DNA of 64,000 nucleotides from Candidatus Omnitrophota bacterium (GCA_041650495.1 JBAZLB010000008.1:4218-68217), one strand, 5' to 3'. Positions 746 through 61,769 are shown, counted from the first letter of the stretch. The notes: generated by a model not told the origin, from the letters alone. Numbers and translations: made by a program.

Positions 746-3700
746 ATGGAAATGTTATTTTGGGGGATCTTTGCCGGGGTAATAGGGCTGACTTTATACG
801 CCATTTCTATGTCAAAGGGCTCATCCGGCAGGCAGAAAAAGCCGAAGAAAGAATTTATTCCTCTCAAGGACCAGGCTGTTTCTTTTAAGGACCAGAAGAT
901 TCAGGATATGCATAAACAGATGGGTAGTTATCAGGAGGAGTTAAAAAGGATAAAAGCAGAATGCGCCGTCTTACAACAAGAGGCCCAGAGGTCCAAGAAA
1001 GAGGGCGCCTCCTTAAAAGAAGAGCTGGATAAGCGCCAGGAGTGGGTTGCTAAAAGCGATGAGGCCGTAAAGAGAATTAAAGAGCAGAACTTGGATTTCG
1101 AGAGGCGTTTGGCTAATAAAGAAAAAGAGATACAGCAGGAATTCTCTAAGAATGTAGATTTAAGCCGGCAGATAAGCGAATTAAACGACAAACTGCAGGG
1201 TATAGAGAATGAGGGTAAGCAGAAAACCGCGGATATTGAAATACTCAAACACCAGGTAGAGAGGAATTTAAAAGAAATCCAGGAGAAAACAAAAGAAGCA
1301 AATTCTTATGCCAAAGAAATTGCGGATATGAAACGAGAGCATGAGCAGAGCGAATGGGTCCCTAAGAAGGAATTTAATAAGCTCAATGAAGAATACAGTG
1401 AATTAGAGTCAGAATTAGAAGCAAGAGATGAGAAAATAAGGGTACTATTTGAAGAGTTGGCGCAGTTGCGCAGCCAACTTAAGCCTAAAGAAGCAGCGGG
1501 GCCTGAGAAGCCCGGGGAAGAGGCCCATCCCGTTGAGGAAATAAAGCAACCCGGTGATATGCAGCAGTCTCTTCCTGTGGAACCTGATAAGGCTATTGAG
1601 GAGCCAAAACCTATTGAGCAGGAAATCCATCCTGCGGAAATACAAGAGTCCCCTCCTACGGAAGCAGAGAAGCCTGTTTTAGAATCCCTTCCTTTAGAGG
1701 CGGAAACTCCTCCTGCCGATATCCGGCAGCTTCCTGTTGAAGAAAGCAAAGAGCCTGTTGAGGGACCTCATGATTCTCAAATAAAAGCACCTATGGCAGA
1801 AGAAGTCCCTGCTAGCCAGGTTAAAGACGAAGGCCAGATACAGGCCGAAGCGGCGGATAACAAGGTTTCAGAAGAAACAAAAGAACAGCAGGTCTCCGGG
1901 CAGCCGGTTGCCGATATCAACCTGGAAAAATCAAGGAATATCGGCATTATGGCGCATATTGATGCCGGAAAGACTACCACTACCGAAAGGATTCTTTTTT
2001 ATACCGGAAAGTCGCATAAGATAGGCGAGGTCCATGACGGCAAGGCCCAGATGGACTGGATGAAGCAGGAACAGGAAAGGGGCATTACTATTACCTCTGC
2101 GGCAACCACTTGTTATTGGAATGGGTATAAGATCAATATTATTGATACGCCTGGGCATGTGGATTTTACCGCAGAGGTAGAACGCAGCTTAAGGGTGCTC
2201 GATGGCGCAGTGGCTTTATTCTGTGCTGTAGGCGGGGTAGAACCTCAATCTGAAACGGTATGGCGCCAATCCAATAAATACAATGTCCCCAAGCTGGTCT
2301 TTGTTAATAAGATGGACCGTACAGGCGCGGATTTCTTTGCTGTAATAAAAGGCATACAGGAAGACCTGGAGGCAAATGTTATCCCCCTGGAAATCCCCAT
2401 TGGAAGCGAGGATAATTTTCGAGGGGTAATTGATCTTATTGAGATGAAGGCATATGTATACCTGGATGATACACAGGGCAAAGATTATAAGATAGAAGAT
2501 ATACCTGAGGAGCTCAAGAAAACATCCGAGGAATACCATCATATTATGGTTGAAAGGGCAGTAGCCTTTGATGATGAATTAATGAAAAAATACCTGGAAT
2601 CACCGGATTCTATTACAGTGGATGAATTAAAAGCGGTTATCCGCCGCGGTACCATCGCCAATAAAATGGTCCCTGTCTTATGCGGCGCTTCTTTTAAGAA
2701 TAAAGGCGTGCAGAAGCTATTGGATGCAATAATATTATATTTGCCTTCTCCTTTGGACCTTCCGCCTGTTGAGGGAAGCGATCCTGAGGATGCCGAAAAA
2801 ATTATACCCAGGAAAACCGATGCCAGCGAGCCGTTTTGCGGCCTGGCCTTTAAGGTCCAGAGTGACCCGCATATGGGAAAACTGGTGTATGTCAGGGTTT
2901 ATTCCGGAGTATTACAGACCGGGTCCTATGTGCTGAATACGCGTAAAAACAAGAAAGAAAGGATAGGAAGGATCCTGAGGATGCATGCCAACCAGAGGGA
3001 AAATATAGATAATGCCTTTGCCGGAGATATCGTGGCTTTAATAGGCATGAGCCATACTATTACCGGAGATACGCTTTGTGACCCTGAGCACCCGATATTG
3101 CTTGAGGCTATACAGTTTCCTACTCCGGTGGTTTCTTTAAGTGTGGCGCCTAAAAGCAGGGGGGATCAGGATAAGCTCGGCAAAGGTTTAGCCAAATTGG
3201 CAGAGGAGGACCCCACTTTCCTAGTGCAAACAGATGAGGAGACCAAGGAGACTATACTGACCGGGATGGGAGAGTTACACCTGGAAATCATCGTAGACAG
3301 GCTGAAGACGGAATTCGGGGTAGAGGCGATAGTGGGTAAGCCTAAGGTCGCTTATCGGGAGACTATAACGAAGTCGGCAAAGGCAGAAGGTAAATACATA
3401 AAGCAGTCAGGCGGCAGGGGCCAATATGGCCATGTAGTATTTGAGATCTCGCCGGCTGAGGCAGGCAAGGGCCTGGTATTTATAGACAGCATAAAAGGAG
3501 GGGCAATACCACGCTCCTTTATCCCCGCAGCAGAGAAGGGGGTCATTGAAGCAATGCAAAAGGGGGTTTATGCGGGTTATCCTATCGTAGACGTGCAGGT
3601 AGACCTCATAGACGGCTCTTATCATGAAGTTGATTCATCGGAATTGGCCTTTAAGATGGCTGCTATATTAGGTTTTAAAGATGGCTTCATGCAGGCAAAT

Positions 3701-3997
3701 CCCATACTCCTGGAGCCAACCATGTCTTTAGTGGCGATTACTCCCGAGGAATACGTAAACAGCGTTATCGGATATATCTGCTCCTGCCGGGGTAAGATTC
3801 TCAATATGGAGACGAAGGGAAAACAGAAGATAGTTTCTGCGGAAGCGCCTCTGGCTGAGATGTTTGGCTATGCTACAAATTTCCGTTCTTTAAGCAGCGG
3901 CAGGGCAAACGCCTCAATGGAATTCTCCAAATATACCCAGGTGCCTTCGGAGATCGTAGCAAAGGTTCAGGCGGAGAGAAGTCAGAAAGAAAGATAA
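746..3997 (+). CDS. Elongation factor G family translational GTPase with an N-terminal extension of about 390 aa. The extension carries a TM signal-anchor helix, a coiled coil and a Pro/Glu-rich linker.
   Basis: The EF-G part carries the G1 motif '[15 protein letters not shown]', G3 'DTPGHVDF' and G4 'NKMDR', plus domain IV '[10 protein letters not shown]'. Its C-terminus '[18 protein letters not shown]' is that of a complete EF-G spanning about aa 395-1083. The N-terminus reads '[22 protein letters not shown]' (hydrophobic helix), then about 200 aa of heptad-like E/K/Q-rich sequence, then a P/E-rich low-complexity stretch. There is no in-frame stop across the whole ORF and the SD 'AGAGGA' sits 6 nt before the ATG at 746. 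Confidence 0.8.
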
Positions 3998-4027
3998 CGC
4001 CTTATCCCTCAAGGCATCATCCTCGTT

Positions 4028-4315: not shown

Positions 4316-4475
4316 GTATTCTCCTTATTTATGTTTTTTTTAATTGAGTGAAAGCATATCATATTATGGCTATTCCATCAAGAGAAAAATAAATAATTGA
4401 TGTTACTATTTTGAAATGTTAAGTTTTACGGCAGCTTCTTATAAGTAGGGATATACTTAGGCAGTAATATATGGC

Positions 4476-5558
4476 TTATATTTCCAGGAGCCTTGCGGAG
4501 TAGGCATTGAGCAGGTCTTTGTATTTTTTATTGATGCGGCAAGGAGCTAAAATAGCATATGATTTGCGCAACAATCTTTTTATCTCTGCCCGGGCATAAT
4601 CCAGCGCGCCGGAATCATCTACGATCTTACGCATCGCCAACAGGTCTTTTTTCTTGGTATCTTTCTTGGCAAATATTCTTTTTATTATTTTTCTGTCGCC
4701 AAGACAGGCTTTGCGGTAAGCCTGCCAAATCAGTATAGTCTTTTTGCCTTCTTTGAGGTCGGCGAGCATAGGTTTACCCGTTTCTTCTTCGTTGCTAAAC
4801 ATCCCTATGATATCGTCTTTTATCTGGAAGGCCCTGCCCAGGCACATGCCGTAGCGGGAAATCCTGTCTATATCTTCTCTGCCTGCCCCGGCAAGGATTG
4901 CTCCCGTGGCAAGGGGCGAGGCAAAGGTATAATGCGCTGTCTTAAGGTCATAGATTTTAACCAGGTCTTTTTTCTTTATATCTCTGATGTCTTTTGTGCT
5001 GTAAAGCAGGAGTTCAATGAATTCGCCGCTGCCCGTATAAACCGCCGCCCGGATAAAATTCTTCAAGGCCTCTTCTTTACGCTTTGCCTCTGTTTCTATT
5101 GATAAAAACGCTTCTATGGCCATAGCGTACATTACATCTCCGGCAGCGATAGCCAGGTCCTGGCCGTTAAATTTGATATTCTTATATCTTTTTAGGTAGT
5201 TATTAAGCATACGGTGCATCGACGGCTTGCCTCTCCTTAGTTCCGATTTATCTATAATGTCATCGTGGACGAGCATAAAATCATGCAGGAGCTCTAAGGA
5301 GATAGCGCTTTTAAATAAACCCCTGGCCGGATTCTTAGCAAAACCAAGGTATCCTATGATAAAAAGTATGGGCCTGACCCGCTTGCCTTTTCTAAGAATA
5401 AAATCTTTTATATGCAGGAACAGGACAGGGGATAGCCGGCTAAGGGAGTAGCTTTTATTGATATCGCCGACAAACTTGTGCAGTTCCTTATCCAGCTTAT
5501 TTTTGATTTTAGTAAACATAATTTTATGATAACATATAAAGAAGCCAAACACAAACAT
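4476..5558 (-). CDS. Polyprenyl diphosphate synthase (trans-isoprenyl diphosphate synthase family, ispB/hepT-like). The start may instead be the internal Met at 5519.
   Basis: The first aspartate-rich motif is 'LVHDDIIDKSELRRGKPS' and the second is 'FQIKDDIIG'. Confidence 0.8.
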   Translation of the reverse strand: MFVFGFFICYHKIMFTKIKNKLDKELHKFVGDINKSYSLSRLSPVLFLHIKDFILRKGKRVRPILFIIGYLGFAKNPARGLFKSAISLELLHDFMLVHDDIIDKSELRRGKPSMHRMLNNYLKRYKNIKFNGQDLAIAAGDVMYAMAIEAFLSIETEAKRKEEALKNFIRAAVYTGSGEFIELLLYSTKDIRDIKKKDLVKIYDLKTAHYTFASPLATGAILAGAGREDIDRISRYGMCLGRAFQIKDDIIGMFSNEEETGKPMLADLKEGKKTILIWQAYRKACLGDRKIIKRIFAKKDTKKKDLLAMRKIVDDSGALDYARAEIKRLLRKSYAILAPCRINKKYKDLLNAYSARLLEI

Positions 5559-6482: not shown

Positions 6483-7609
6483 AAAAGATAATCATTATAG
6501 GCGCAGGTATAGCCGGTATTACTGCCCTGATGACACTGCGCAGGTTCCGCGGCGACTTAGACGTTACGTTAATAGATAGAAATACAGAATCCAGCTTTCT
6601 TCCTCTGCTTCCCGATGTTATCGGCAGGGGGATAAAGCCCTTATACCTTGATTGCGATTTTAGACAAATATGCCGGGAGGCGGGGTTTAAGTTCGTGCAT
6701 TCCGCCGTATCTTCGTTAAATTTAGATAAAAGAGAGGTCATTACCGATTCAGGTATTTTTACCTATGATTATGTTCTTATTGCCAGCGGCAGCGAAACTA
6801 ACTTTTACGGAAATGACCGGATAAAGGAGGCTTCTTTTAAGCTGGATGATAGTAGAGATGCCCGGGTAATATCTGAGGCCTTAGGGCGGGGGAATCTTGC
6901 TTGCTGTTTAGTTGTCGGGGGAGGATATACCGGCATTGAGACAGCTTCTAATCTTTACAGGTATTTTACGCGCAGGCAGGAAAAGATAAAGATATTTATT
7001 GTTGAGCGTGCCTCTTCTATTTTAGGGCCGCTGCCGGAATGGATGAAGGGTTATGTTTTGGCCAGCCTAAAAAATATGGGAATTGAGGTATTGACCGGGG
7101 CTACTATAGTAAAATTAGAGAAAGCAAGCGTATATCTTAGCAACGGCAGTATCTTTAGAAACGCTATGGTTATCTGGGCTGCGGGGGTAAAAACCTCCGG
7201 CTATCTTGACAGCTTAAAGGCGGAAAAGGGCCCCCAGGGCCGGATATTAGTGGATGAATACCTAAGGCTGGATCTCAGCTGTTTTGCCGCAGGGGATGCC
7301 GCTCTTTTTAAGTATAAAGACGGGTATCTGCGTATGGCTGTGCAGTTTGCTATTGCCCAGGGGTCCTCTGCCGCCTTAAACATTGTAAGAAGCATCCGTG
7401 GCAGGAGGATCATAAAATATAAGCCCAGGGATTTAGGGTATATCATTCCTATGGCCAATAACAGGGCTTGCGGCATAATTATGGGCATCGGAGTAAATGG
7501 GCGTTTTCCCCTTATATTACATTATGCTATGTGCCTTTACCGCTTGCGGGGCCTTTATAATAAATGGGGGGTCTTTAAGGACCTTATTTCAGGAGGTGTG
7601 CTATGTTGA
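6479..7609 (+). CDS. FAD/NAD(P)-binding pyridine-nucleotide-disulfide-family oxidoreductase, type II NADH:quinone oxidoreductase-like.
   Basis: Two Rossmann motifs are present, 'IIGAGIAGITA' and 'VVGGGYTGIE', and 'CFAAGDAA' resembles the NDH-2 signature. Its ATG overlaps the stop of the menA-like gene, consistent with translational coupling. Confidence 0.6.
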   Translation: MKKIIIIGAGIAGITALMTLRRFRGDLDVTLIDRNTESSFLPLLPDVIGRGIKPLYLDCDFRQICREAGFKFVHSAVSSLNLDKREVITDSGIFTYDYVLIASGSETNFYGNDRIKEASFKLDDSRDARVISEALGRGNLACCLVVGGGYTGIETASNLYRYFTRRQEKIKIFIVERASSILGPLPEWMKGYVLASLKNMGIEVLTGATIVKLEKASVYLSNGSIFRNAMVIWAAGVKTSGYLDSLKAEKGPQGRILVDEYLRLDLSCFAAGDAALFKYKDGYLRMAVQFAIAQGSSAALNIVRSIRGRRIIKYKPRDLGYIIPMANNRACGIIMGIGVNGRFPLILHYAMCLYRLRGLYNKWGVFKDLISGGVLC

Positions 7610-10703: not shown

Positions 10704-11108
10704 GTTGACTGTCAATTTATCACAGCAAGTTTCTTTTTGCAATATCTTTCTCTCTTTTCTAATACCGTTTACCAATCCAAATATAATCTGTGGTAATCTT
10801 TCTCAAGAGCACAAGGGACAAGGTGATGGACGGAAACCGTCCCCTTTATTATGCGGGTCTGTCCCCGGCTGGGATTTACTTAGTTTTTTTGGGACTTTGC
10901 CCTCCGTAAGTTATGCGCTCATTAAGCTGTTTTTGTTGAAAAATCCTTAATAAGTGATAAAATATGAAGGCGTATCCGGAATGGGAAGATAAGGGCCCGC
11001 CTTAAGATTGAGCCGGGAAACAAGAAATGTCTGCCGCAGAGCATTTTTGTTATCTGCAGTATAAAATCTTTTTGAAATAATGAGTCCGATGAATAACAGG
11101 ATGGGTAT

Positions 11109-14544: not shown

Positions 14545-14768
14545 CCCCGCGATTAGAACTCATTGTCAGAATTAAGTTTATGAGCGTGGCTTTATTTGTG
14601 TTCTTAGGGGCAAGTTTATCCCTCGCGTAAGCACTTGAAATTTCCTGGCGCAAGCGCCAGAAAATTTCTACGTACGCTTCAGGATAATTCGCAGACGCCC
14701 CTTTACAGGGGCTACAACTTACGTCGGAGATGGATAAAATAATCGCTCCGTAAGTTGTCTGCTCATTA
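14545..14768 (+). repeat. Structured intergenic repeat, copy A1. It is the longer, more diverged member of the five-copy dispersed family.
   Basis: It shares the 'CTTCAGGATAATTCGCAGACG' block and the hairpins 'GCCCCTTTACAGGGGC' and 'ACAACTTACGTCGGAG..CTCCGTAAGTTGT'. It has a 'CTGCTCATTA' end and an additional hairpin 'GAAATTTCCTGGCGCAAGCGCCAGAAAATTTC'. Confidence 0.7.
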
Positions 14769-14770
14769 AA

Positions 14771-14957
14771 TATACCCCGTTAGCTAAGCGCTGCGTGGAT
14801 CGTGTATCCCTTGCCTAAACGCTCGAAAATTACTTTCGCTATGCTCAGTAATTTTCTTCGCAGGCTTCGGGATAATTCGCAGACGCCCCTTTACAGGGGC
14901 TACAACTTACGTCGGAGATGGATAAAATAATCGCTCCGTAAGTTGTCTGCTCATTAC
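14771..14957 (+). repeat. Structured intergenic repeat, copy A2, lying in tandem with A1. It is the archetype of about 187 nt and ends 18 nt before the htpX ATG.
   Basis: Its last roughly 100 nt are identical to A1. It has three hairpins: 'GAAAATTACT..AGTAATTTTC', 'GCCCCTTTACAGGGGC' and 'ACAACTTACG..CGTAAGTTGT'. Confidence 0.8.
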
Positions 14958-14975
14958 ATTAAAGGAGGTAGAAGG

Positions 14976-15938
14976 ATGTTTTTTTTAAAACTGAGGATGT
15001 GGCTTTTGTTGGGGGCACTTTTTGGGATTATCTATGCCATAATGGTTATGGTCGGTTCTTACCTGGGGATTACGAATTTTTATTTCTACCTATTTTTATC
15101 TCTGGCCATGATTCTTGTCCAGTATCTTATCGGGCCTAAAATGGTAGAGTGGACCATGCGTGTCAGGTATGTGAGTAAACAGCAATACCCTCAACTGTTT
15201 AGCATGGTAGAAGAATTATCCGCTAAGGCAGGAATCCCTATGCCTAAAATAGGCATATCCGCTATTCAGTTGCCGAATGCCTTTGCTTTTGGCCGCACAC
15301 TTAAGGACGGACGGGTATGCGTTACCGAAGGGATACTGCGGTTATTAAACGAAGAAGAGCTAAGGGCGGTTTTGGGGCATGAGTTAAGCCATTTGAAGAA
15401 CCGGGATGTCCTGACTATAACCCTGCTTTCGGTCATACCCATGATTCTTTACCGCTTAGCCTGGCAGTTCTTATTTTACGGCCGCCGCAGGGATTCAGAA
15501 AGGGGAAATAATACCGCAATTATCGGCTTGCTGGCTTTTGTCTTCTATTTTATCACCAACCTGCTGGTCCTTTATGCCTCCCGGATACGGGAATATTTTG
15601 CCGATCGCGGCTCTGTACAGCTGGGGAATCATCCCTCCAGCCTTGCCTCCAGTTTATACAAACTGAGCCAGGCGTCAGCGCGGGTAACACCTGAGTCGTT
15701 AAAAGAGGTAGAGGGGGTAAAGGCGTTTTTTGTCAATAACCCTTCGCAGGCCCTGAATGAAATCAGGGAATTAAGGCAAATCGACCTGGATAAGAACGGC
15801 GTAATCGGAGCCTCGGAGTTGGAACGTCTAAAAAAAGGCAGGATAAAACTTAACTTAGGAGAAAGGTTGTTGGAACTTCTCAGCACTCATCCTAATATGC
15901 TTAAGCGCCTGATGCAGCTTTCCCAGTATCAAGACTGA
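14976..15938 (+). CDS. htpX: HtpX-type M48 zinc metalloprotease with a C-terminal EF-hand-like insertion.
   Basis: The active site is 'HELSHLKNRD' (HExxH), N-terminal TM helices are predicted, and the RBS is 'AAAGGAGGT'. The track ORF starts on TTG at 14943, inside the repeat. Confidence 0.8.
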   Translation: MFFLKLRMWLLLGALFGIIYAIMVMVGSYLGITNFYFYLFLSLAMILVQYLIGPKMVEWTMRVRYVSKQQYPQLFSMVEELSAKAGIPMPKIGISAIQLPNAFAFGRTLKDGRVCVTEGILRLLNEEELRAVLGHELSHLKNRDVLTITLLSVIPMILYRLAWQFLFYGRRRDSERGNNTAIIGLLAFVFYFITNLLVLYASRIREYFADRGSVQLGNHPSSLASSLYKLSQASARVTPESLKEVEGVKAFFVNNPSQALNEIRELRQIDLDKNGVIGASELERLKKGRIKLNLGERLLELLSTHPNMLKRLMQLSQYQD

Positions 15939-33118: not shown

Positions 33119-34090
33119 ATGGCATTTAAAGATATAAAAGGACAGGATAGGCCTATTGATATACTCAAGGAGCAGTTTAAGAATGGCCGTATTGCCGGTG
33201 GGTATCTTTTTACCGGGCAAGAAGCTATAGGTAAGCGCATGGTGGCTACTGTTTTGGCTAAGGCTGTTAACTGTAGAGACCAAGGAGCAGGTTTTGATTC
33301 TTGCGATAAGTGCCCTGAGTGTATTAAGATTGCAGGTAATCAGCATCCTGACGTGCATATCCTGGATACGGCAGATTCCGGATCCATAAAAATAGAAGCC
33401 GTAAGGCAATTAAGAAAAGATGTATGCCTTAAGCCTTATGCAGGCAGGATGAAGTTTTTTATTATAAATAACGCCCATAATATGACTGATGATGCCTCTA
33501 ACGCGCTTTTAAAAATACTGGAAGAGCCGGCAGGGGAGACAGCTATCATTTTAATCAGCGCAAAGCCGCTTTTGCTGCTTCCTACTATTATCTCCCGCTG
33601 CAAGCGCCTGAAATTCTCCTCTTTGCCCAGGGAAGAACTCGCCTGCATCCTGCAAAAAGATTATCTCCTGGACAGCCAATATGCGCATTTCCTGGCTTAT
33701 TACGCAGAAGGCCGGATCGGTTATGCCTTAAGCCTGAAAGATTCCGAAATTCTTAAGGAGAAGAACCGGATTATTGACAGGTTTGTTTTTTCTTCCGATA
33801 CGAGCTTTGAAAACATCACCCTGCGGGAAAGAGGGGATATATCATCCAGCCTGAACATATTGGCCGGGTGGTTCAGGGATTTATACCTTTTAAAAGTAGG
33901 CGTACCTCATCACCAGCTCATTAATTATGACCGTAAGGAGGAATTATTGCGGATGATGGGCCGTTATACGCTGATGGATTTGGAAGGAGCGATATCCTCC
34001 GTTTCGGATGCCCTTTTCTACCTGGAGCACAACGTTAACATAAAATTGCTGCTGTCTAACCTTAAGGCCTGCATTAAGGTTGGCGGATAA
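33119..34090 (+). CDS. holB: DNA polymerase III delta-prime subunit.
   Basis: It is an AAA+ clamp-loader subunit with 'GQEAIGKRMVATVLAKAVNC' and a zinc module of Cys residues. Confidence 0.85.
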   Translation: MAFKDIKGQDRPIDILKEQFKNGRIAGGYLFTGQEAIGKRMVATVLAKAVNCRDQGAGFDSCDKCPECIKIAGNQHPDVHILDTADSGSIKIEAVRQLRKDVCLKPYAGRMKFFIINNAHNMTDDASNALLKILEEPAGETAIILISAKPLLLLPTIISRCKRLKFSSLPREELACILQKDYLLDSQYAHFLAYYAEGRIGYALSLKDSEILKEKNRIIDRFVFSSDTSFENITLRERGDISSSLNILAGWFRDLYLLKVGVPHHQLINYDRKEELLRMMGRYTLMDLEGAISSVSDALFYLEHNVNIKLLLSNLKACIKVGG

Positions 34091-34110
34091 GAATATATGG
34101 AGAAAAACTT

Positions 34111-38431: not shown

Positions 38432-39043
38432 ATGGGTGACAGCGGGCTTCTTGGGTTAAGGCTTAAATTGGATGATGCAATTACCTATGGCACTTACCGG
38501 GAGTCTTTAGAGATTGCCCTGCAAGGCCTTAAGGAAGCCGAGGAGAAAGGCTATCCGGGAGAAGTAGAATATTTCAAAGGGCAACTGGATATCCTGCATG
38601 AAAAATATAACAGCGCCATTGAGCATTTTGATGCCGCCATAAAATATAACCCCGCAGACGGCGCCTCTTATAATGACCGGGCCTTGTGCATGATAGAATT
38701 AGGGATTATTGATAAGGCATTTTATTATTTTGATAAAGGCATTGAAGTAGAGCCTGATTATGCTACTATTTACCATAATAAAGGATGGCTCCTGAATAAT
38801 ATCGGCAGATATGAAGAGGCAATAGAATGTTTCCGCAAGGCCCTGGGCCTGCAGCCGATGAGGCCGGTAACGTATGACAATCTGGGGGATGCCTTGTTTA
38901 ATCTCGCGGATTATCAGGGTGCGCTGGCGGCTTATAAAAAGGTCCTGGAGTTATTAAAGCCGGATACCTGCCTTGAGATAAGAGAACAGGTGAAGGAAAG
39001 AATCAAGGAGATTAAAGAACAAAAAGGGGACGGTTCTATTTAA
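38432..39043 (+). CDS. Tetratricopeptide-repeat protein.
   Basis: It has multiple TPR units of 34 aa (W/LG/Y-A-F-A-P pattern). Confidence 0.6.
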   Translation: MGDSGLLGLRLKLDDAITYGTYRESLEIALQGLKEAEEKGYPGEVEYFKGQLDILHEKYNSAIEHFDAAIKYNPADGASYNDRALCMIELGIIDKAFYYFDKGIEVEPDYATIYHNKGWLLNNIGRYEEAIECFRKALGLQPMRPVTYDNLGDALFNLADYQGALAAYKKVLELLKPDTCLEIREQVKERIKEIKEQKGDGSI

Positions 39044-39190
39044 TCTATCCCCGTTAGCTAAGCGCTGCGTGGATCGTGTATCCCTTGTCTAAGCGCCTGG
39101 AGATTTCTTCGAAATCTTCATCGCAGGCTTCGGGATAATTCGCCCAGACAACTTATGTTCACTACCGTTCCATAAGTTGTGGGCTCGTTA
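39044..39190 (+). repeat. Structured intergenic repeat, copy C. It ends 12 nt before the mtnA ATG.
   Basis: It shares the 'CCCCGTTAGCTAAGCGCTGCGTGGATCGTGTATCCCTT' block (one mismatch to copy A2), the 'CGCAGGCTTCGGGATAATTCGC' core and a hairpin 'ACAACTTATG..CATAAGTTGT' with a compensatory change. Confidence 0.8.
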
Positions 39191-39202
39191 AAAGGAGCAA
39201 GG

Positions 39203-40252
39203 ATGAAAGAGATTACGACTATAAAATGGCAGAATAATGCTATCAGAATTATCGATCAGACAAAATTACCGGGTGAATTGCGTTATTTGTATATCAATAA
39301 CCTTAAAGACCTGTGGCAAGCGGTAAAGATAATGCAGGTAAGAGGTGCTCCGGCGTTAGGGGCTGCCGCAGCCTTGGGGGTATACTTAGGTATCAGGGGC
39401 TCGCGGGCAAATAACTTTCTCCAATTTAAGAGAGAGTTGGATAAGGTGATTAAGTATTTAGCCTCCAGTCGGCCCACGGCCAGAAATCTGTTTTGGGGCC
39501 TGGAGAGGATGAGGCGTTTGGCTGAAGAAAATAAGGCAAAACCGGTTGTGAAAATAAAAAAGGCTTTATGGCAGGAGGCAAATAATATAATTGAGGAAGA
39601 CAGGACTGTCTGCCGCAGGATCGGGTACTTCGGTGCAAAATTAATCCGGGACAATGATACGATATTGACTGTTTGTAATGCCGGGATACTAGCTACTATT
39701 GATTACGGTACTGCTTTAGGGGTGATTTATAAAGCAAAGCAGGAAGGTAAGCGTATAAAAGTATTTGCCTGCGAAACCAGGCCGATGCTGCAGGGCGCGC
39801 GTCTTACTTCCTGGGAGTTGCAGAAGAAAGGCATTGATGTTACTCTTATCTGCGATAATATGGCTGCCTGTTTGATGAAGCAGGGAAGGATTGATAAGGT
39901 CATTACCGGTGCTGACAGGATCGCCTTAAACGGCGATACTGCCAATAAGATCGGTACGTATAACCTAGCGGTATTAAGCCATTACCACAATATCCCCTTT
40001 TATATTGCAGCCCCCGTTTCTACCTTTGATTTTAGATTGGCTTGCGGCACTCATATTCCCATTGAAGAGCGCCCGGCAGAGGAACTTACCAGTTTATTTT
40101 TTCGCAAGCCTATCGCGGCTTCGGGGGTCAAGGTTTTTAACCCCTGTTTTGATGTTACTCCTTCTAAACTGATAAGTGCGATCATTACCGATAAGGGCAT
40201 TATCCGTCCGCCATACCGGAAAAATATCCTGAAATTAAAAAAAGCTCCATAA
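39203..40252 (+). CDS. mtnA: S-methyl-5-thioribose-1-phosphate isomerase (eIF-2B alpha/beta/delta family).
   Basis: It has 'IIDQTKLP', 'GAPALGAAAALG' and 'GADRIALNGDTANKIGTY'. The track ORF starts on GTG inside the repeat, so the ATG at 39203 with RBS 'AAGGAG' is preferred. Confidence 0.85.
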   Translation: MKEITTIKWQNNAIRIIDQTKLPGELRYLYINNLKDLWQAVKIMQVRGAPALGAAAALGVYLGIRGSRANNFLQFKRELDKVIKYLASSRPTARNLFWGLERMRRLAEENKAKPVVKIKKALWQEANNIIEEDRTVCRRIGYFGAKLIRDNDTILTVCNAGILATIDYGTALGVIYKAKQEGKRIKVFACETRPMLQGARLTSWELQKKGIDVTLICDNMAACLMKQGRIDKVITGADRIALNGDTANKIGTYNLAVLSHYHNIPFYIAAPVSTFDFRLACGTHIPIEERPAEELTSLFFRKPIAASGVKVFNPCFDVTPSKLISAIITDKGIIRPPYRKNILKLKKAP

Positions 40253-51669: not shown

Positions 51670-52677
51670 GAGGAAGCTATGCCTGAATTAAGGTATAACA
51701 TCATTGGCCGGGATTGGGTAATTGTTGCTACGGAGAGGGCAAAGCGCCCCAGGGATTTTATAAAGAAAAAGAAGGAAGAAGCAGTAGTGCCTGAATATAA
51801 AGACAACTGTCCCTTTTGTCCCGGAAATGAGAGTCAGACTCCGCAGGAGACATTCCGCTTGGGTGATAAGAATATATGGAAGGTGCGTTCAGTTTATAAT
51901 CTTTACGGGGCGCTTTCCGCGAATGAAAAGATGGCCCGGGATAACAATGGGATGTATATATCAATGAACGGATTCGGAAACCATGAGGTGATTATCGAGC
52001 ATCCCCGGCACAACATTTCCATAGCCTTGATGAGCGAAGAAGAAGTGGAAAATATTATAAGGGCATACAGGGATCGTTATCTGTCGATTCAGGATATTCA
52101 GGGAATTGAAGCTATTGTGATTTTTAAAAATCACGGCCCCAGCGCAGGCACTTCGCTGGAGCATCCTCATTCACAGCTTATTGCTACCCCTATCGTTCCT
52201 CCGCAGATAAGAGGCCGCATAGAACAGGCGGCAGGTTATTTTGACCTTACCGGCAACTGTGTCTTCTGTCAGACACTCAAGGAAGAACTTAAGGCAAAAC
52301 AGCGGATTGTCTTTGAAACGGATAAATTTGTTTCCTTTGTGCCTTACGCAGGGGTAGCTCCTTTTGTTACCTGGATTTTTCCCCGCAGGCATATGGCTTC
52401 TTTCGCCGAGATTAGCGACGGAGAAATAGGCGATTTAGCGGGCAACTTAAGGCGCACTCTTCAGAAATTATATTACGGCCTCCAAAACCCGGATTTTAAT
52501 TATACCATCCGTTCTATCCCGGTAAAAGAGAACGGCGCAGAGTATTTCCATTGGTACATAGGTATTATCCCGCGCTTAAGCCAGCCTGCCGGATTTGAAT
52601 TGGGCAGCGGGATGTTTATTAATACCTCTTTGGCTGAGGAGGCGGCAGAGTTTTTACGCCAGGTCCGGTGCCCGTAG
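51670..52677 (+). CDS. galT: Galactose-1-phosphate uridylyltransferase (HIT family).
   Basis: It has the zinc site 'CPFCPGNE' and the active site 'HPHSQ'. The RBS is 'AAGGAGGA'. Confidence 0.8.
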   Translation, partial: EEAMPELRYNIIGRDWVIVATERAKRPRDFIKKKKEEAVVPEYKDNCPFCPGNESQTPQETFRLGDKNIWKVRSVYNLYGALSANEKMARDNNGMYISMNGFGNHEVIIEHPRHNISIALMSEEEVENIIRAYRDRYLSIQDIQGIEAIVIFKNHGPSAGTSLEHPHSQLIATPIVPPQIRGRIEQAAGYFDLTGNCVFCQTLKEELKAKQRIVFETDKFVSFVPYAGVAPFVTWIFPRRHMASFAEISDGEIGDLAGNLRRTLQKLYYGLQNPDFNYTIRSIPVKENGAEYFHWYIGIIPRLSQPAGFELGSGMFINTSLAEEAAEFLRQVRCP

Positions 52678-52754: not shown

Positions 52755-53744
52755 ATGTCCATAAAAGAAGCTGAGAGATCAAGGTTATTACCCGCGTTAT
52801 TTTTATCTATCTTTTTGTCCCCCTTTGTTTTATCCAATGCCTATGCTGATGAGGCAAGGGCAGAGGCGCAGGAACAGGCGATTAAAGAGGCGGAGGAATC
52901 ATCAATTCCTACCGCAGAAGACTTCCGTCAGAGGTTAAGACGGACGGTAGTTATACAGGAAGAAGAGTTTGCTCAAGGGATAGATTCTTTTGTGCAGTAT
53001 ATGCCTTCCCGGGGAGTGGATGCGCAGTCAGGAAAGGTCGGGGTAATTCATTCAGCTGTTGAATACAGCTATCAAACCAAGGCCTTTGGTAAATTGCCGG
53101 TAGAATTTGCGGTAGGGGCTGATTATTTGGGAATAGATAATACTACTGTCGTAAAACTTCCGGCGCATTTGACCGGAGTAGCTTTCGGCGCGGAAACCAC
53201 ATTCCCTCTTTTTAATATTGATAAGACTTATTTGACTATAGGGCTTGCCCCGTCTTTATTGGGTGATGATTGGAATTTTGATTCCTCGCATTTTCGTATG
53301 CTGCAGCGTTATTTCCTAATCCATCAGCCGAATGAACAATGGACGTTTATTGCTGGCGTTGCAGTATTTCCGGACTATGATGACGATATTGTTCCAATTT
53401 TAGGTTTTATCTACAGGCCCAATGACCGGTTGACTTTTAATATCATTCCCAAGAGGCCGGAGATTTCCTATGCCTTAGATGATAAATTTACGGTCTTTGC
53501 TGAAGCAGATATGTCCTCAAGTGAGTTTGAGGTGGATAAAGACACGTTTAAGGATGTAATAATTGAGTATAATGAAATGCACGCAGGTCTGGGCCTCAAA
53601 TATAAACCGAATAAATATATTAATAGTTCTGTTTCTGTCGGAGGTATGTTTAATCGTTCCATAAAGTACCGCGACGACAACCTGGGTAAAGTTACGATTA
53701 AAGACGGCCTATATACCGAATTCCGGCTGGAATTGAGTTTCTGA
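52755..53744 (+). CDS. Predicted outer-membrane beta-barrel protein.
   Basis: It has a signal peptide, alternating-hydrophobic beta strands and a C-terminal Phe ('LELSF'). Confidence 0.5.
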   Translation: MSIKEAERSRLLPALFLSIFLSPFVLSNAYADEARAEAQEQAIKEAEESSIPTAEDFRQRLRRTVVIQEEEFAQGIDSFVQYMPSRGVDAQSGKVGVIHSAVEYSYQTKAFGKLPVEFAVGADYLGIDNTTVVKLPAHLTGVAFGAETTFPLFNIDKTYLTIGLAPSLLGDDWNFDSSHFRMLQRYFLIHQPNEQWTFIAGVAVFPDYDDDIVPILGFIYRPNDRLTFNIIPKRPEISYALDDKFTVFAEADMSSSEFEVDKDTFKDVIIEYNEMHAGLGLKYKPNKYINSSVSVGGMFNRSIKYRDDNLGKVTIKDGLYTEFRLELSF

Positions 53745-53885
53745 TTAATGACGACACAACTTACGGAGCGAAGCGAGCGTAAGTTGTTGTCGGAATTAAT
53801 CCCCGCTGCTACGAGTAGATTTCGAAGAAATCTACGACGTGCTTAGCTGCGGGGCTAGATGCTAGTTATTTGCGCGAATTATCCC
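53745..53885 (-). repeat. Structured intergenic repeat, copy D. It is in inverted orientation, lies between convergent genes and overlaps the stop codon of the OMP gene.
   Basis: Its reverse complement contains 'GGGATAATTCGCG', the hairpin 'GTAGATTTCTTCGAAATCTAC', 'ACAACTTACG..CGTAAGTTGT' and the end 'GTCGTCATTAA'. Confidence 0.75.
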
Positions 53886-53897
53886 TAAGCGTACGCA

Positions 53898-54410
53898 TTA
53901 CCTTTTCTCCGGATGAAAACCTATTGGGATTTTTTCTTTAACGGGAAGTGGTTCTAAAAGCTGTTTAATTGTTTTAAATACTATAGCAAACTGCTTATCG
54001 TATTTTCTCTCCATTTCTTCAATCTTACGTTTGAGATCTCTGTTAGTTAAAAGCATTCGTCTTAATTGGGCAAAAGCACGCATAATCTGAATATTTACCA
54101 TAATCGCCCGCTCACTGTTCAAGACACTTGAGAGCATAGCTACGCCTTCTTGCGTAAAAACATACGGCAGATATCTCCGACCGCCTCGGTTTGAGGTCGC
54201 AAAATGCGACCTCAAAAAATCACATTCTTCCTCGGTGAGTTGAAACATAAAATCTTCAGGGAATCTCTTTCTGTTTCTTGCCACTTGCTCATTGAGTCGT
54301 TTTGTCTTTACCTCATAGAGTATAGCTAAGTCGCTATCCAACAAAACCCTTTTACCTCGAACGATTAAAATTTTTGTGGCTATTGTTGCCGCAGGAATCA
54401 AATCAGACAT
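53898..54410 (-). CDS. ORF6N (KilA-N-like) DNA-binding domain protein, typical of phage/island remnants.
   Basis: The ORF6N-family N-terminal domain has 'LDSDLAILYEV', and it continues 'RFPEDFMFQLTEEE'. Confidence 0.7.
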   Translation of the reverse strand: MSDLIPAATIATKILIVRGKRVLLDSDLAILYEVKTKRLNEQVARNRKRFPEDFMFQLTEEECDFLRSHFATSNRGGRRYLPYVFTQEGVAMLSSVLNSERAIMVNIQIMRAFAQLRRMLLTNRDLKRKIEEMERKYDKQFAIVFKTIKQLLEPLPVKEKIPIGFHPEKR

Positions 54411-54513
54411 TTTGCCCCCCTCTTACTATTAATAGACGCAAAAGAAGGGAAAATCTAACATAATTTTTTGCTGGTTTTCTAGTCTTATTGGATTGGCAAA
54501 CAGTGCTGATTAA

Positions 54514-54594
54514 TGCGGGAGGAGGGAGTTGAACCCTCATGCCTTGCGGCACTGGCTTCTGAGACCAGCGCGTCTGCCATTCCGCCACCCCCGC
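54514..54594 (-). tRNA. tRNA-Leu(CAG).
   Basis: The 81-nt cloverleaf has the acceptor GCGGGGG/CTCCCGC, a 3-bp D stem and the anticodon loop CTCAGAA. The variable arm is 13 nt (TGCC-GCAA-GGCA). The T arm is GAGGG-TTCAACT-CCCTC. Discriminator is A and CCA is not encoded. Confidence 0.85.
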
Positions 54595-54729: not shown

Positions 54730-55686
54730 ATGTTTCTGGAATATTTTAAGACCGCAGGCCTTGCGGTTGTGCAGATTTTTGTGCTGGGCGCATTAGGATA
54801 TATATTAATGCGCAAGAATATCTTAGGCGAGGCAGGGCTGGATATTTTAAGCCGCCTGGTGGTTGAGGTTACCCTGCCGGTGATGATATTCTGCCAGTTG
54901 ATCAGGGATTTCCGTTTTAATATTTATCCACAGTGGTGGATTTTTCCTCTCATAAGCCTGGTTGTGACTGTTCTCGGCCTGGCTGTGGGTTATATCTTAT
55001 CCGTCTTTATTAAAGGGGGCGAACACAAAGCGCAGTTTCTGAGCTTAGTCACTTTCCAGAATTCCGGTTATCTGCCCCTGGCCTTGATTGCGGCATTATT
55101 GCCCGGGAGTCAGAAGGATACCATGTTTATTTATATATTCTTGTTTCTTCTGGGGTTTAACCTGGTCATGTGGTCTTTTGGCGTCTATATGCTTTCATTC
55201 CATAAGAGCAGGAAATTTGAGTTAGGCAGCCTTTTTAGCCCTGCGGTTATCGCTATTATCTTAAGCCTGGTGATTGTTTTCTTGGGCCTGAACAGTTTCA
55301 TACCGTCGGCACTTCTTAAGCCCATGAGCATGGTAGGGGATTGCACCCTGCCTTTGGCTATGATGGTGGTAGGAGGCAGCCTCTCGTTGTTACGCATCAG
55401 GCATACAGATAATAAGGCGATGCTGTTACTGGTCCTGGCAAAACTTCTTATACTGCCGGCTTTAGGCCTGTGGTTTTTATCCCGGGTAAGCCTGCCGCCG
55501 TTGATAGGCCTGTTGATTATCATGCAGCTGGCAGTGCCTCCGGCGACATCGCTTTCTGTGATTGTCCGCCACTATAAGAAAGAAGACCTGCTTATCAGCC
55601 AGGGCATATTCTTCGGCCATATTATAGGGTTAGTCAGCCTGCCATTATTTTTGAGTTTGTATTTTATGCTGGCCGTGATAAAATAA
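54730..55686 (+). CDS. AEC-family (auxin efflux carrier / malate permease-like) transporter.
   Basis: It has ten TM helices and the typical AEC N-terminus 'AGLAVVQIFVLGALGYIL'. Confidence 0.8.
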   Translation: MFLEYFKTAGLAVVQIFVLGALGYILMRKNILGEAGLDILSRLVVEVTLPVMIFCQLIRDFRFNIYPQWWIFPLISLVVTVLGLAVGYILSVFIKGGEHKAQFLSLVTFQNSGYLPLALIAALLPGSQKDTMFIYIFLFLLGFNLVMWSFGVYMLSFHKSRKFELGSLFSPAVIAIILSLVIVFLGLNSFIPSALLKPMSMVGDCTLPLAMMVVGGSLSLLRIRHTDNKAMLLLVLAKLLILPALGLWFLSRVSLPPLIGLLIIMQLAVPPATSLSVIVRHYKKEDLLISQGIFFGHIIGLVSLPLFLSLYFMLAVIK

Positions 55687-55778
55687 ATGCGGCATGAGTT
55701 GTGGTAGTTGTTCCGCCTCATAAACCACGCTAAGATTCTGTTTCCCGGGAAATGCGAAGCATTTCCGGGATTAAATCC

Positions 55779-55912
55779 CCGAAATCGCCTAGCGATTTCA
55801 GGGGACCATAATTTTAGCGTATTCGGCGGGATAATTCGCAGACGGCCTTACGGCCTACGACTTATGTCGTAGTGGATATAAAACTGATACTCCATAAGTC
55901 GTCTGCTCATTA
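55779..55912 (+). repeat. Structured intergenic repeat, copy E. It ends 16 nt before the smpB ATG.
   Basis: It has 'GAAATCGCCTAGCGATTTC', 'GGCGGGATAATTCGCAGACGGCCTTACGGCC', 'ACGACTTATG..CATAAGTCGT' and 'CTGCTCATTA'. Confidence 0.8.
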
Positions 55913-55928
55913 AAGTTGCGTGCTCATT

Positions 55929-56408: not shown

Positions 56409-56815
56409 GGGGGTGAAAGGGCTCGACTTGGGTAAGCCGGGTAAGAGCAGCATGCCGCGGATGCGAGGTGAGCCGCGTTAACAATCCTTGCAAAATACAA
56501 ATGCCAACTACGAAACAGTAGGGCTGAGACCGGTGTCGACAGTAATGCCGACATTTGTCCCGGCTGGCGTGCAAGTCCCAGTCCTTAATTAAGGGTTGGG
56601 CCTCTCTTAACCCTTGCCTGGGGGTTAGGTAGGGCGATTTCTAGGCTGGTTGCGCGTTTTGCCTTTGGGCGCGTGACGAGAGCGGTTTTAAGGCTGCGTC
56701 TTTTCCGGATCCCGCCTGACGGAGCCGGATGAGACAAAGAATAAAAGACAGGCTAAGCATGTAGCGGCTTTTATTTGGTTACTTAAGGACGGCGGTTCAA
56801 TTCCGCCCACCTCCA
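56409..56815 (+). ncRNA. ssrA: Transfer-messenger RNA (ssrA/tmRNA).
   Basis: The 5' end 'GGGGGTG' pairs with the 3' 'CACCTCC' and has a G3-U wobble like tRNA-Ala. The T arm is 'GGCGGTTCAATTCCGCC' and the discriminator is A. The internal tag ORF begins 'GCCAACTACGAA' (ANYE...) and ends at a TAA followed by the helix 'AGGGTT..AACCCT'. The gene is about 407 nt and lies directly downstream of smpB. Confidence 0.85.
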
Positions 56816-57041
56816 CTTTCTAAGGTAAGACTAAAAAAGGGGGAAAATCATTAGTTTAATACAAAGGAAGGAAGAAAAAAGGCAGCCTGGCACTCCAGGG
56901 CCGGGTAATCTTATTAAGGGGATTATCCTGGGGGTATGTCTCCTGGTTTTAGCCGGCTGCGCTACCGTTTCAGTCCGCGATAACTTCCCCACTTACAATA
57001 TAGGCGGCCTCACTTATATACCCGCGGTATCTCTTTGCCGT

Positions 57042-60926: not shown

Positions 60927-61769
60927 ATGAGAAGATTAGAGGCAAAAACAATCAGGCAGGCGGTTGAGGATTTATGCATAAAGGCTAATACCATCTTAAG
61001 GAAGGATGTTTTAAAAGCCCTTAAGTTATCTTTAAAAAAAGAAAGCAGCGCAGGGGCCAGGAATATTTTAGAGGCGATTATTCAGAACGCCTCCATAGCC
61101 AAAAAAGAAAAACTGGCGATTTGTCAGGATACCGGTATGCCGATAGTCTTCCTGGAGGTCGGCCAGCAGGTAAATATCAGGGGAGATGTCAATCAGGCAG
61201 TAACTAAAGGTATAGAAGACGGCTATAAAAAAGGGTATTTCCGGCCTTCCGTCATCAGGGACCCTTTATCAAGGGGCAGGCCGCAGTATTCACCCGTGCT
61301 TATCCACGCGGATATTGTCCGGGGAGATAAAATGAAGATTACCGTTTTGCCTAAGGGCTTTGGCTGCGAAAATAAATCCAGGCTGTGTATGTTTAAGCCG
61401 ACCGCAGGTTTTCTTGAAATAAAGAGATTTATTCTTGAGACGGTAAAAGATGCGGGCCCGGATGCCTGTCCTCCCTATGTGGTGGGGGTGGGTATAGGCG
61501 GCAGCGCAGAATACGCTTCTCTGCTGGCTAAAAAGGCCCTGCTTAAAGATATTACCTGTGGCAAGACGAAGAATTCCGGCCGGAACGCAAAGTTAGAGGA
61601 TGAATTATTGAAGGAGATAAACAGCTTAGGTATCGGGCCGATGGGCTTAGGCGGTAAGACCACGGCATTAGGCGTAAAGATACTGACTTATCCTACCCAT
61701 ATTGCCGGGCTGCCGGTAGCGGTAAATATCAGCTGTCACGCCCTGCGCAGTGCCGGCACAATATTGTAA
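60927..61769 (+). CDS. fumA: Class I (Fe-S) fumarate hydratase, alpha subunit (N-terminal domain).
   Basis: It has 'ICQDTGMPIVFLEVGQ'. Confidence 0.85.
   Translation: MRRLEAKTIRQAVEDLCIKANTILRKDVLKALKLSLKKESSAGARNILEAIIQNASIAKKEKLAICQDTGMPIVFLEVGQQVNIRGDVNQAVTKGIEDGYKKGYFRPSVIRDPLSRGRPQYSPVLIHADIVRGDKMKITVLPKGFGCENKSRLCMFKPTAGFLEIKRFILETVKDAGPDACPPYVVGVGIGGSAEYASLLAKKALLKDITCGKTKNSGRNAKLEDELLKEINSLGIGPMGLGGKTTALGVKILTYPTHIAGLPVAVNISCHALRSAGTIL

Follow-up and report, generated by a model that had tools for sequence, protein, structure and literature searches.

A hairpin-forming repeat between genes of Candidatus Omnitrophota, probably a family of small mobile DNA

What is the repeated sequence that lies directly before mtnA in a Candidatus Omnitrophota genome, and how did it come to fill the space between two genes there? 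The stretch in question is 64,000 nucleotides long (GCA_041650495.1 JBAZLB010000008.1:4218-68217; hereafter the window) and belongs to a phylum of uncultured, often ultra-small bacteria with streamlined genomes. An earlier note on this DNA had described copies of the repeat as the immediate 5' leader of three functionally unrelated genes, htpX, mtnA and smpB, and had suggested that it donates an outward-facing promoter or acts as a common post-transcriptional control element. The repeat is indeed present at mtnA (copy c3, 39040-39191, + strand), with further copies before an htpX-like gene and smpB. In our analysis it probably belongs to a large family of small mobile repeats that code for nothing and form hairpins, similar to miniature inverted-repeat transposable elements (MITEs) and repetitive extragenic palindromic (REP) sequences, and found almost exclusively in genomes labelled as Omnitrophota. 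The family, which resides between Omnitrophota genes, is real and apparently hitherto undescribed.

The c3 copy occupies the entire gap from the stop codon of a tetratricopeptide-repeat (TPR) gene (TAA, 39041-39043) to the Shine-Dalgarno (SD) sequence of mtnA. TTAA is found at each of its borders (39040-39043 and 39188-39191), its right end, CTCGTTAA, spans 39184-39191, and the spacer that follows (39192-39205, + strand, with the SD AAGGAG at 39192-39197 and the ATG at 39203-39205) lies outside the element and predates it. The orthologous site is empty in three loci from other genomes (L124-L126) which encode MtnA proteins of 72% identity. In L124, which could be read cleanly, the junction between the TPR gene and mtnA consists of TAA, 13 nt and ATG; in L125 and L126 the TPR gene is also kept upstream, and the junction is short and lacks the element. 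Among 53 mtnA loci, none carried an element at mtnA.

A similar picture was obtained for smpB and for other operons. Four relatives with SmpB proteins of 71-74% identity (L120-L123) keep the order Mem_trans, smpB, and further on queC/E/F, fumarase and RNase PH, and in all of them Mem_trans and smpB overlap (ATGA) or abut (TAAATG), compared to a gap of 242 nt in the window. One spc-type ribosomal-protein operon was seen to carry the element at four different junctions in four species (rpsN|rpsH in L081, rpsH|rplF in L107, rplF|rplR in L006, and after rpsE in L114), where other species have 0-16 nt or a gene overlap. As relatives keep the gene order without the element, and as four differing junctions of the same operon are occupied, the element is an insertion. 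Its density varies as well: the 81 kb of smpB relatives contained one match to the family model, versus 5-6 in the 64-kb window. In the rnf-purN stretch of L060, four full elements each exactly fill an intercistronic gap.

TTAA or TAA stands at both borders in the end profiles (...CCTCA-TTAA-(A/G) at the right, TTAA-R-TGARG... at the left), at c3 and in L107, and the TTAA is also part of the closing helix of the element. An extended target duplication covering SD and ATG, suggested by L055, L075 and the rnfG|rnfE junction of L060, was not reproduced at L006 or L107 and was discarded. One orthologous site is occupied in three species (L023, ~700-1300; L039, ~330-1000; L080, ~6900-7600); it lies between a divergent gene start and the terminator of an opposite-strand gene, read by eye and presumably rnpB. 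The three elements differ in variable helix and central hairpin, i.e., they are of different subfamilies, which suggests a hotspot or conversion between copies.

To define the breadth of the family, species-representative genomes were scanned with an exact pattern, which returned at least 119 loci. Among the matches listed, true copies were recognized in ~94 loci from ~71 assemblies, almost all of them Candidatus Omnitrophota or metagenome-assembled genomes labelled Planctomycetia/Planctomycetales (PVC), and originating from groundwater, lakes, marine sediment, peat and deep mines. A covariance model, R1, yielded 196 matches at E<0.01 in 621 kb of loci from other genomes. In the window its scores were high for c3 (76.7 bits, E=1e-16) and c5 and low for c1, c2 and c4, owing to an extra small hairpin in each of these three. 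The 3' motif TCCRTAAGTYGTNNNNTCRTTA (up to 2 mismatches allowed) is present six times in the window as compared to 0.01 matches expected by chance; five of these matches are exact, and the sixth, in a fragment at 10903, has 1 mismatch. At the gathering threshold, Rfam 15 matched only the transfer-messenger RNA (tmRNA) and tRNA in the window, and permissive searches gave nothing credible at E<=10 for c1-c2 or at E<=1 for the four full elements in L060. No description of such a repeat, structured RNA or palindrome was found in the literature on Omnitrophota/Omnitrophica, nothing relevant was found in that on bacterial MITEs with a TTAA target, and 17 pattern matches in viral contigs contained no credible element. 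Omega-RNA, bridge-RNA and retron identities were rejected for lack of an Rfam match and of an associated protein gene.

The conserved unit of the family, M3, is a hairpin of ~65 nt with the layout TTAAT-TC-GNNC-NN-ACAACTTAYG-T(T)C-2-bp stem and loop-TC-CRTAAGTTGT-GNNC-TC-ATTAA. It is built of an AT closing helix (TTAAT/ATTAA), a TC x TC internal loop, a 4-bp variable helix (GNNC/GNNC) and a conserved helix of 10 bp (ACAACTTAYG/CRTAAGTTGT). In 45 copies, 95.7% of the cells were paired, and this value fell to 30-41% in a control in which the partner was slid by 1-3 columns. The 3' strand of M3 is fixed by the search pattern save at the N and R/Y positions, and the informative result is therefore the covariation at these free positions: three variable P1 pairs and the Y/R pair (pair 29-49) alternate between GC, CG, AU and UA, and the observed covariation score was matched by 0 of 500 column shuffles.

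The elements are non-coding and 150-260 nt long. Since many R1 matches come as back-to-back pairs on opposite strands, 15-250 nt apart, a full element can be divided into three parts: an inverted M3 at the left (TTAA-R-TGARG-GNNC-hairpin-GNNC-GAAYTT on the sense strand), a variable central hairpin, B, and an M3 at the right (...CCTCA-TTAA). The left module fits the right-module model on the opposite strand, so that full elements possess terminal inverted repeats. Hairpin B is found either as a long perfect GC-rich stem (e.g., CCCCCACACCAATTG.../...CAATTGGTGTGGGGG) or, as in the window, as type II (ATCCC..GCNT-AAGCRC..apical hairpin..CGYAGGC..GGGAT), in which compensatory changes are present. 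The window copies are made of B and the right module and lack the left module, and a fragment of a second B precedes c2, c3 and c5. In c3, a 5' arm, CCCCGTTAGCTAAGCGCTGCGTGGATCGTGT (39049-39079, +), is common to c2 (89% identity to 14775-14835) and, by comparison with c5, resembles the 5' half of the central hairpin of a different subfamily. It is followed by a type II hairpin B (39080-39136, +; ATCCC..GTCT-AA-GCG..(GGAGATTTC-TTCG-GAAATCTTC)..CGC-AGGC..GGGAT), with compensatory changes in 10 of the 12 predicted pairs, and by M3 (39135-39191, +; ATAAT-TC-GCCC-AG-ACAACTTATG-loop-CATAAGTTGT-GGGC-TC-GTTAA). For c3, good folding was predicted on either strand (z = -3.2, plus; z = -2.6, minus). The structured nature of the element, proposed in the earlier note, is thus well borne out.

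In the predicted fold each hairpin is closed within itself, and neither the SD nor the A-rich tail is paired. A four-way junction or tRNA-like cloverleaf was considered and dropped, as each module closes on itself (TTAAT/ATTAA, TTAAAT/ATTTGA) and end-to-end pairing is not conserved, hairpin A being flipped relative to hairpin C in some copies (L019). The open reading frames (ORFs) of the element are very short and confined to its left end, which reads stop codon-ATG/GTG-AAG/AGG and opens a mini-ORF of ~2-8 codons in most copies read, such as MKTQLSEC-stop (L060, 5410-5436) and MKTQFTER-stop; others are seen at the left ends of L101, L067 and L035, and in one L013 copy the frame stays open for at least 20 codons. 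The likeness of the mini-ORFs among copies may reflect just the conserved nucleotides, or it may indicate a re-initiation site for the terminating ribosome. Tandem arrays also occur, namely c1-c2 in the window and, in L006 (4528-4775), three units with a 92-nt period, each with a short B hairpin and M3. The L006 array lies after a ribosomal-protein gene, a 448-aa gene beyond it being presumably secY from its length and position, and it shows that local amplification takes place besides dispersal.

As for the position relative to genes, 57% of 140 module matches in other genomes had an ORF of 60 aa or more starting at -3 to +40 nt from the right end, compared to 17% of random intergenic positions in the same loci (p about 1e-26). 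In the window, TCATTA ends 19, 12 and 16 nt upstream of the ATGs of the htpX-like gene, mtnA and smpB, respectively. Pfam assigns these genes to Peptidase_M48, IF-2B/MtnA and SmpB, and those upstream of the same three copies to DUF1573, a TPR protein and a Mem_trans permease. The earlier observation that the repeat lies directly 5' of the SD or ATG of unrelated genes extends phylum-wide. The distance from the right end to the ATG is bimodal, either 10-17 nt, with AGGAGG directly after TCATTAA, or 0-5 nt, with no SD; on inspection, these two classes resemble the SD-containing and the short stop-to-start spacings of element-free junctions in these loci. The remaining right flanks are terminators of converging genes, promoters and tRNA ends.

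The ends of the element are also closely associated with stop codons. Of 41 cases in which a gene converges on a TCATTAA end, 24 have the stop codon of that gene overlapping the terminal TTAA/TGA, and in none is it located at +4 to +57. The left end provides stop codons in two frames, and at rnfG|rnfE the original ...AAA TGA has been rebuilt. The adjacency to start codons is real, yet largely a geometric by-product of landing after the upstream stop, because the empty sites place the element between that stop and a pre-existing spacer or overlapping start. Likewise, the three window copies look like dedicated 5' leaders because their right border meets the old post-stop sequence. The related warning that gene calls would be extended into the repeat held for the mechanical ORF list, which enters it on TTG or GTG codons (14943, 39179 and 55920), and failed for the public gene calls, which use the ATGs.

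The sequence of events that we propose is as follows. New copies would arise at TTAA or TAA sites, very commonly at a gene's own stop codon, and in such compact genomes (~88% coding in the element-bearing loci) a single element would take up the whole space between two cistrons. Its left border would then overlap the upstream stop codon and its right border would precede the old post-stop sequence, be it an SD and ATG (10-17 nt), an ATG (0-5 nt), a terminator or a promoter. The element would be transcribed within the operon mRNA and fold into its self-contained hairpins; because these leave the SD and the A-rich tail free, the insertion would be tolerated even inside ribosomal-protein and rnf operons and may be nearly neutral. 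Mobility would be conferred in trans, possibly by a DDE enzyme with a TAA/TTAA target or by a hairpin-recognizing HUH enzyme.

The promoter proposed in the earlier note was not supported. According to that proposal, the hexamer within GGGATAAT would serve as the -10 box of an outward sigma-70 promoter driving htpX, mtnA and smpB; GATAAT does match TATAAT at 5 of 6 positions in c2, c3 and c4, and smpB, parted by the insertion from its former upstream partner, still needs to be expressed. Nevertheless, consensus scans for intrinsic terminators and sigma-70 promoters gave nothing on the plus strand at any window copy, and no -35 partner of GGGATAAT was found in these copies. Beyond the window copies, GGGATAAT itself is seen in a minority of loci; the family consensus is GGG(R)T-TAATTC, and the hexamer is usually TTAATT or ATTAAT. 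Moreover, the GGGAT of GGGATAAT is the 3' closing strand of hairpin B, and its sequence varies in step with that of the opposite strand: a perfect reverse complement of the 6-mer preceding the AATTC junction was found up to 135 nt upstream in 68 of 108 copies, compared to 2 of 108 in the control, and at least 32 different 6-mers occupy this position. Recognizable TTGACA-17-TATAAT-like promoters lie upstream of the whole element in L111, L034, L094 and L017, and the junctions were operon-internal before insertion. We therefore regard an element-borne promoter as very improbable.

Two other signals in the leader were also considered. The motif GCTCATTAA resembles boxA (GCUCUUUAACAA), and its position after a hairpin and before genes could be taken for a Nus-factor site following a boxB-like hairpin, in processive antitermination. 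This idea is barely credible, since the GC part of the motif is a strand of the variable helix, TCATTAA pairs with TTAAT, a mirrored motif at the left end faces stop codons, and the motif is absent from the orthologous junctions of relatives. A pathway-specific riboswitch or leader was rejected, as the downstream genes are unrelated (peptidase, MtnA, SmpB, ribosomal proteins, RnfE/RnfB, PurN).

The ends of the element are, in addition, polar relative to gene direction. In co-directional contexts, 45 right-type ends were in the sense orientation versus 19 antisense, and 30 left-type ends were antisense versus 6 (Fisher p=2.7e-7); gene calls were crude longest-ORF calls, and the individual counts carry error accordingly. 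The orientation bias of the earlier note is thereby found beyond the window. It could originate from selection at the transcript level, from replication-coupled strand-specific insertion, or from survivorship, if copies last only when their orientation rebuilds the stop codon and keeps the A-rich start region open. Several further observations weigh, together with this polarity, against the mobile-repeat interpretation that we favour. The core sequence is conserved over ~71 species and the same variable-helix subfamilies co-occur in many genomes; these features and the polarity are not obviously expected of selfish DNA, and suggest transcript selection or a strand-specific mechanism. Apart from c1/c2, the window copies have diverged to 60-70%, with no sign of a recent burst here. 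The L081 insertion at rpsN|rpsH is located at neither TTAA nor a stop codon. Nor could a true duplication of the target be demonstrated, as the flanking TTAA doubles as part of the closing helix and no near-isogenic empty site is at hand. Finally, ~0.7 Mb of element-bearing loci revealed no candidate transposase and no autonomous copy with an ORF between left and right ends; nor did any neighbouring gene family appear over-represented near copies in this sample. A phmmer/jackhmmer search of 4451 local ORF fragments with an IS200 TnpA query, a weak test, revealed no Y1 transposase.

In a rival explanation, the repeat is a domesticated intercistronic RNA module, a form of punctuation or insulator whose mobility is secondary. 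The left hairpin would cap the 3' end of the upstream cistron and the right hairpin the 5' end of the downstream one, while the centre would be a processing site, or a fold that holds the stop and the next start close so that downstream translation survives uncoupling. Consistent with such a module, right-type ends face downstream starts and left-type ends follow stops in the proportions given above, the core is conserved phylum-wide with compensatory changes, and the folding of each hairpin on itself keeps the SD free of pairing. The element is also kept in essential operons, including junctions to SD-less genes (smpB, rplR, rnfE), and the site next to the putative rnpB is occupied in three species in which the neighbouring protein is 62-69% identical. 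Conversely, close relatives lack the element at the same junctions, its density differs about 5-fold or more between lineages, and ~30% of right-type ends are antisense to the flanking genes. The stems are 96% Watson-Crick, and among their mismatches G-U (42) is no commoner than A-C (36), which holds for both orientations of the module with respect to genes; this test for selection at the RNA level gave no signal, and fits a DNA-level or strand-symmetric constraint better. We consider the domesticated module, which would be compatible with mobility, unlikely. The common post-transcriptional role raised in the earlier note may exist; the polarity favours it, and the mismatches do not.

Whether the mobility is of the classical DDE MITE type was considered separately. 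In an alternative scenario, doubtful though not far-fetched, the repeat is a single-strand hairpin transposon of the IS200/IS605-PATE or REP/REPIN-RAYT type, in which a tyrosine HUH enzyme recognizes the hairpins and cuts at TTAA, and the orientation bias results from coupling to replication. Several features agree with it: the same stem sequence is found in hairpins at both ends, the variable helix preserves pairing and not sequence, TTAA is present at the left flank and the right terminus, and an orientation bias exists. Like REP, BIME and REPIN sequences, the repeat forms extragenic hairpins that occur singly or as inverted doublets flanking a linker; most are found downstream of ORFs, where the neighbouring genes are unidirectional or convergent, and stem pairing is maintained (PMC3733652). 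However, REP superfamilies are defined by a palindromic unit of 20-40 bp with an unpaired GTAG or CGTC tag (PMC3733652). The unit described here measures ~65 nt, lacks such a tag and has its foot flanked by TTAAT-TC and TC-ATTAA, and no RAYT was found in the weak search of local ORFs. As in the PATEs derived from IS200/IS605, subterminal hairpins at both ends, a fixed short insertion-site sequence and an orientation bias are seen; yet IS200/IS605 ends are asymmetric, whereas the present repeat has the same module at both ends in inverted orientation, and neither a TnpA/TnpB partner nor, by that search, a Y1 transposase was detected in the local ORFs. In addition, c5 follows the local gene direction and not a window-wide strand.

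Of MITEs, the mobile repeat has the short non-coding sequence, the many dispersed copies, the terminal inverted repeats and the presence or absence at orthologous sites; a cognate autonomous insertion sequence (IS) with the same ends was not found in the ~0.7 Mb sample. We file it as a non-autonomous palindromic intergenic repeat, working like Correia, ERIC or REP-type palindromes; its notable traits are the phylum-wide conservation of the core, the modular build of three hairpins, the borders flush with stops and starts, and the polarity relative to gene direction. The Correia repeats (NEMIS) of Neisseria are non-coding sequences of ~100-250 nt, with inverted ends and many copies, which are co-transcribed and form long hairpins, and their ends carry promoters, integration host factor (IHF) sites and RNase III sites. 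Our repeat is similar in size, inverted ends, copy number, location next to genes and A/T-rich target, and would likewise be co-transcribed and folded. It differs in having no supported promoter, in its three separate hairpins with a 65-nt module, in its TTAA/TAA flanks as opposed to TA, and in its spread over a phylum as opposed to a genus; a sequence relation is not evident, though no comparison against Correia sequences underlies this statement.

With ERIC/IRU sequences of Enterobacteriaceae and Vibrio it would share transcription as an intergenic palindrome, along with occurrence in many species and often inside operons, an orientation-dependent relation to neighbouring genes and the lack of a known transposase; sequence and modular build differ, and flushness with stops and starts and left/right polarity are not defining features of ERIC. 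The MIRUs of Mycobacterium are tandem units of 46-101 bp with small ORFs that keep translational coupling. They too occupy intercistronic gaps of operons, with borders that coincide with the upstream stop and downstream start, but the present repeat is a hairpin palindrome, has a very short ORF at its left end only, and is dispersed and not a variable-number tandem repeat. Integron attC sites were rejected, as the GTTRRRY/RYYYAAC core sites were absent by motif and the flanking genes are core housekeeping genes and not cassettes.

A bolder and rather speculative formulation, to which we assign a low probability, is that the family is a phylum-wide polar module of cistron boundaries, being either a new transposition system that homes to stop codons and recognizes hairpins, or a domesticated RNA device. 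In the latter case, Omnitrophota would be able to split coupled genes (Mem_trans|smpB, rplF|rplR) with the SD-less downstream gene still being expressed. Should the polarity reflect selection at the RNA level, the family would represent an insulator or processing element widespread in nature, from which parts for engineered operons could be drawn; should it reflect the mechanism of insertion, it would point to an enzyme that targets TTAA at stop codons. A repeat that colonizes the few bases between cistrons, essential operons included, is in itself a useful marker of genome dynamics, and offers a natural experiment on how much structured RNA a single operon junction absorbs. A genome-wide census is made straightforward by the covariance model and the end signatures. 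The repeat also causes assembly breaks and possibly start-codon mis-calls. Two independent short-read Logan contigs (L195 and L197, SRR8542065), which encode the identical MtnA and M48-peptidase proteins, begin 90 and 49 nt, respectively, before the ATG; as these starts lie inside c3 and c2, the repeat breaks short-read assemblies.

In total, the window contains five copies and one fragment of the repeat, which is here 150-190 nt long. Copy c1 (14618-14769, +) comprises hairpin B (14618-14685), the AATTC junction (14686-14690) and M3, with its extra small hairpin at 14697-14712 and TCATTAA at 14763-14769. It is followed in tandem by c2 (14775-14962, +), whose M3 half (~109 nt, 14851-14959) differs from c1 at one base and in which TCATTA (14951-14956) is succeeded by CATTAA, the SD AAGGAGG and the M48-peptidase ATG at 14976. 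Copy c4 (55687-55928, +) is a 242-nt composite between the Mem_trans stop codon (TAA, 55684-55686) and the smpB ATG (55929). It is made of a degenerate module (55687-55725), hairpins, an M3 (GGGAT at 55828-55832, TCATTAA at 55907-55913) and a leftover right end, AGTTGCGTGCTCATT (55914-55928). As the earlier note had seen, TGCTCATTA is present twice before smpB (55904-55912 and 55920-55928), and the second TGCTCATT directly touches the ATG. On the minus strand, c5 (53745-53897; 75.9 bits; M3 at 53745-53805) fills the gap between the convergent DUF6268 (stop TGA, 53742-53744) and ORF6N (stop 53898-53900) genes and is upstream of no gene; it holds a second, truncated junction, GGGATAATTCGCGC, at 53872-53885. 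The degenerate fragment (~10840-10926, +; nhmmer E=4e-4) retains the right end CTCCGTAAGTTATGCGCTCATTAA and is situated in a divergent intergenic region.

A number of additional observations were made at these loci. The c5 copy adjoins the end of a minus-strand island (53898-54594) within a plus-strand region, containing an ORF6N-domain (antirepressor-like) gene and tRNA-Leu(CAG), with a strong promoter, TTGACA-17-TATACT (54635-54607); the island may be the remnant of an integrated element. Directly after smpB lies the tmRNA gene (56409-56818, +), for which ARAGORN predicted an unusually long tag, ANYETVGLRPVSTVMPTFVPAGVQVPVLN-stop, without the usual ...LAA ending; the Rfam alignment displays a ~50-nt insertion in the tag region. 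Contacts with tRNA genes were seen in other genomes: in L029 (~3430-3560, -) hairpin B directly continues the 5' half of a tRNA, which comprises the acceptor and D arm, in L097 (2080-2218, +) a tRNA 3' end is separated by 3 nt from a right module, and in L037 and L038 tRNA 3' ends are 1-3 nt from the right end. The junctions of the ribosomal operon also harbour unrelated palindromic or tandem insertions, among them mirrored GGTTACATAAGG... repeats and CGAATTTAC-type repeats (L114, ~990-1116, 1730-1830, 3913-4006 and 4321-4383; L107, ~1000-1157 and 4350-4755; L081, 5000-5063), and intercistronic hairpin insertions seem to be a general habit of Omnitrophota. Lastly, a 30-nt direct-repeat family, CATTAAGGTTGGCGGATAAGAATATATGGA (70-83% identity), was found at or just after three gene starts in the window (34072-34101, 51851-51880 and 60949-60978); it may represent only a shared SD and start context.

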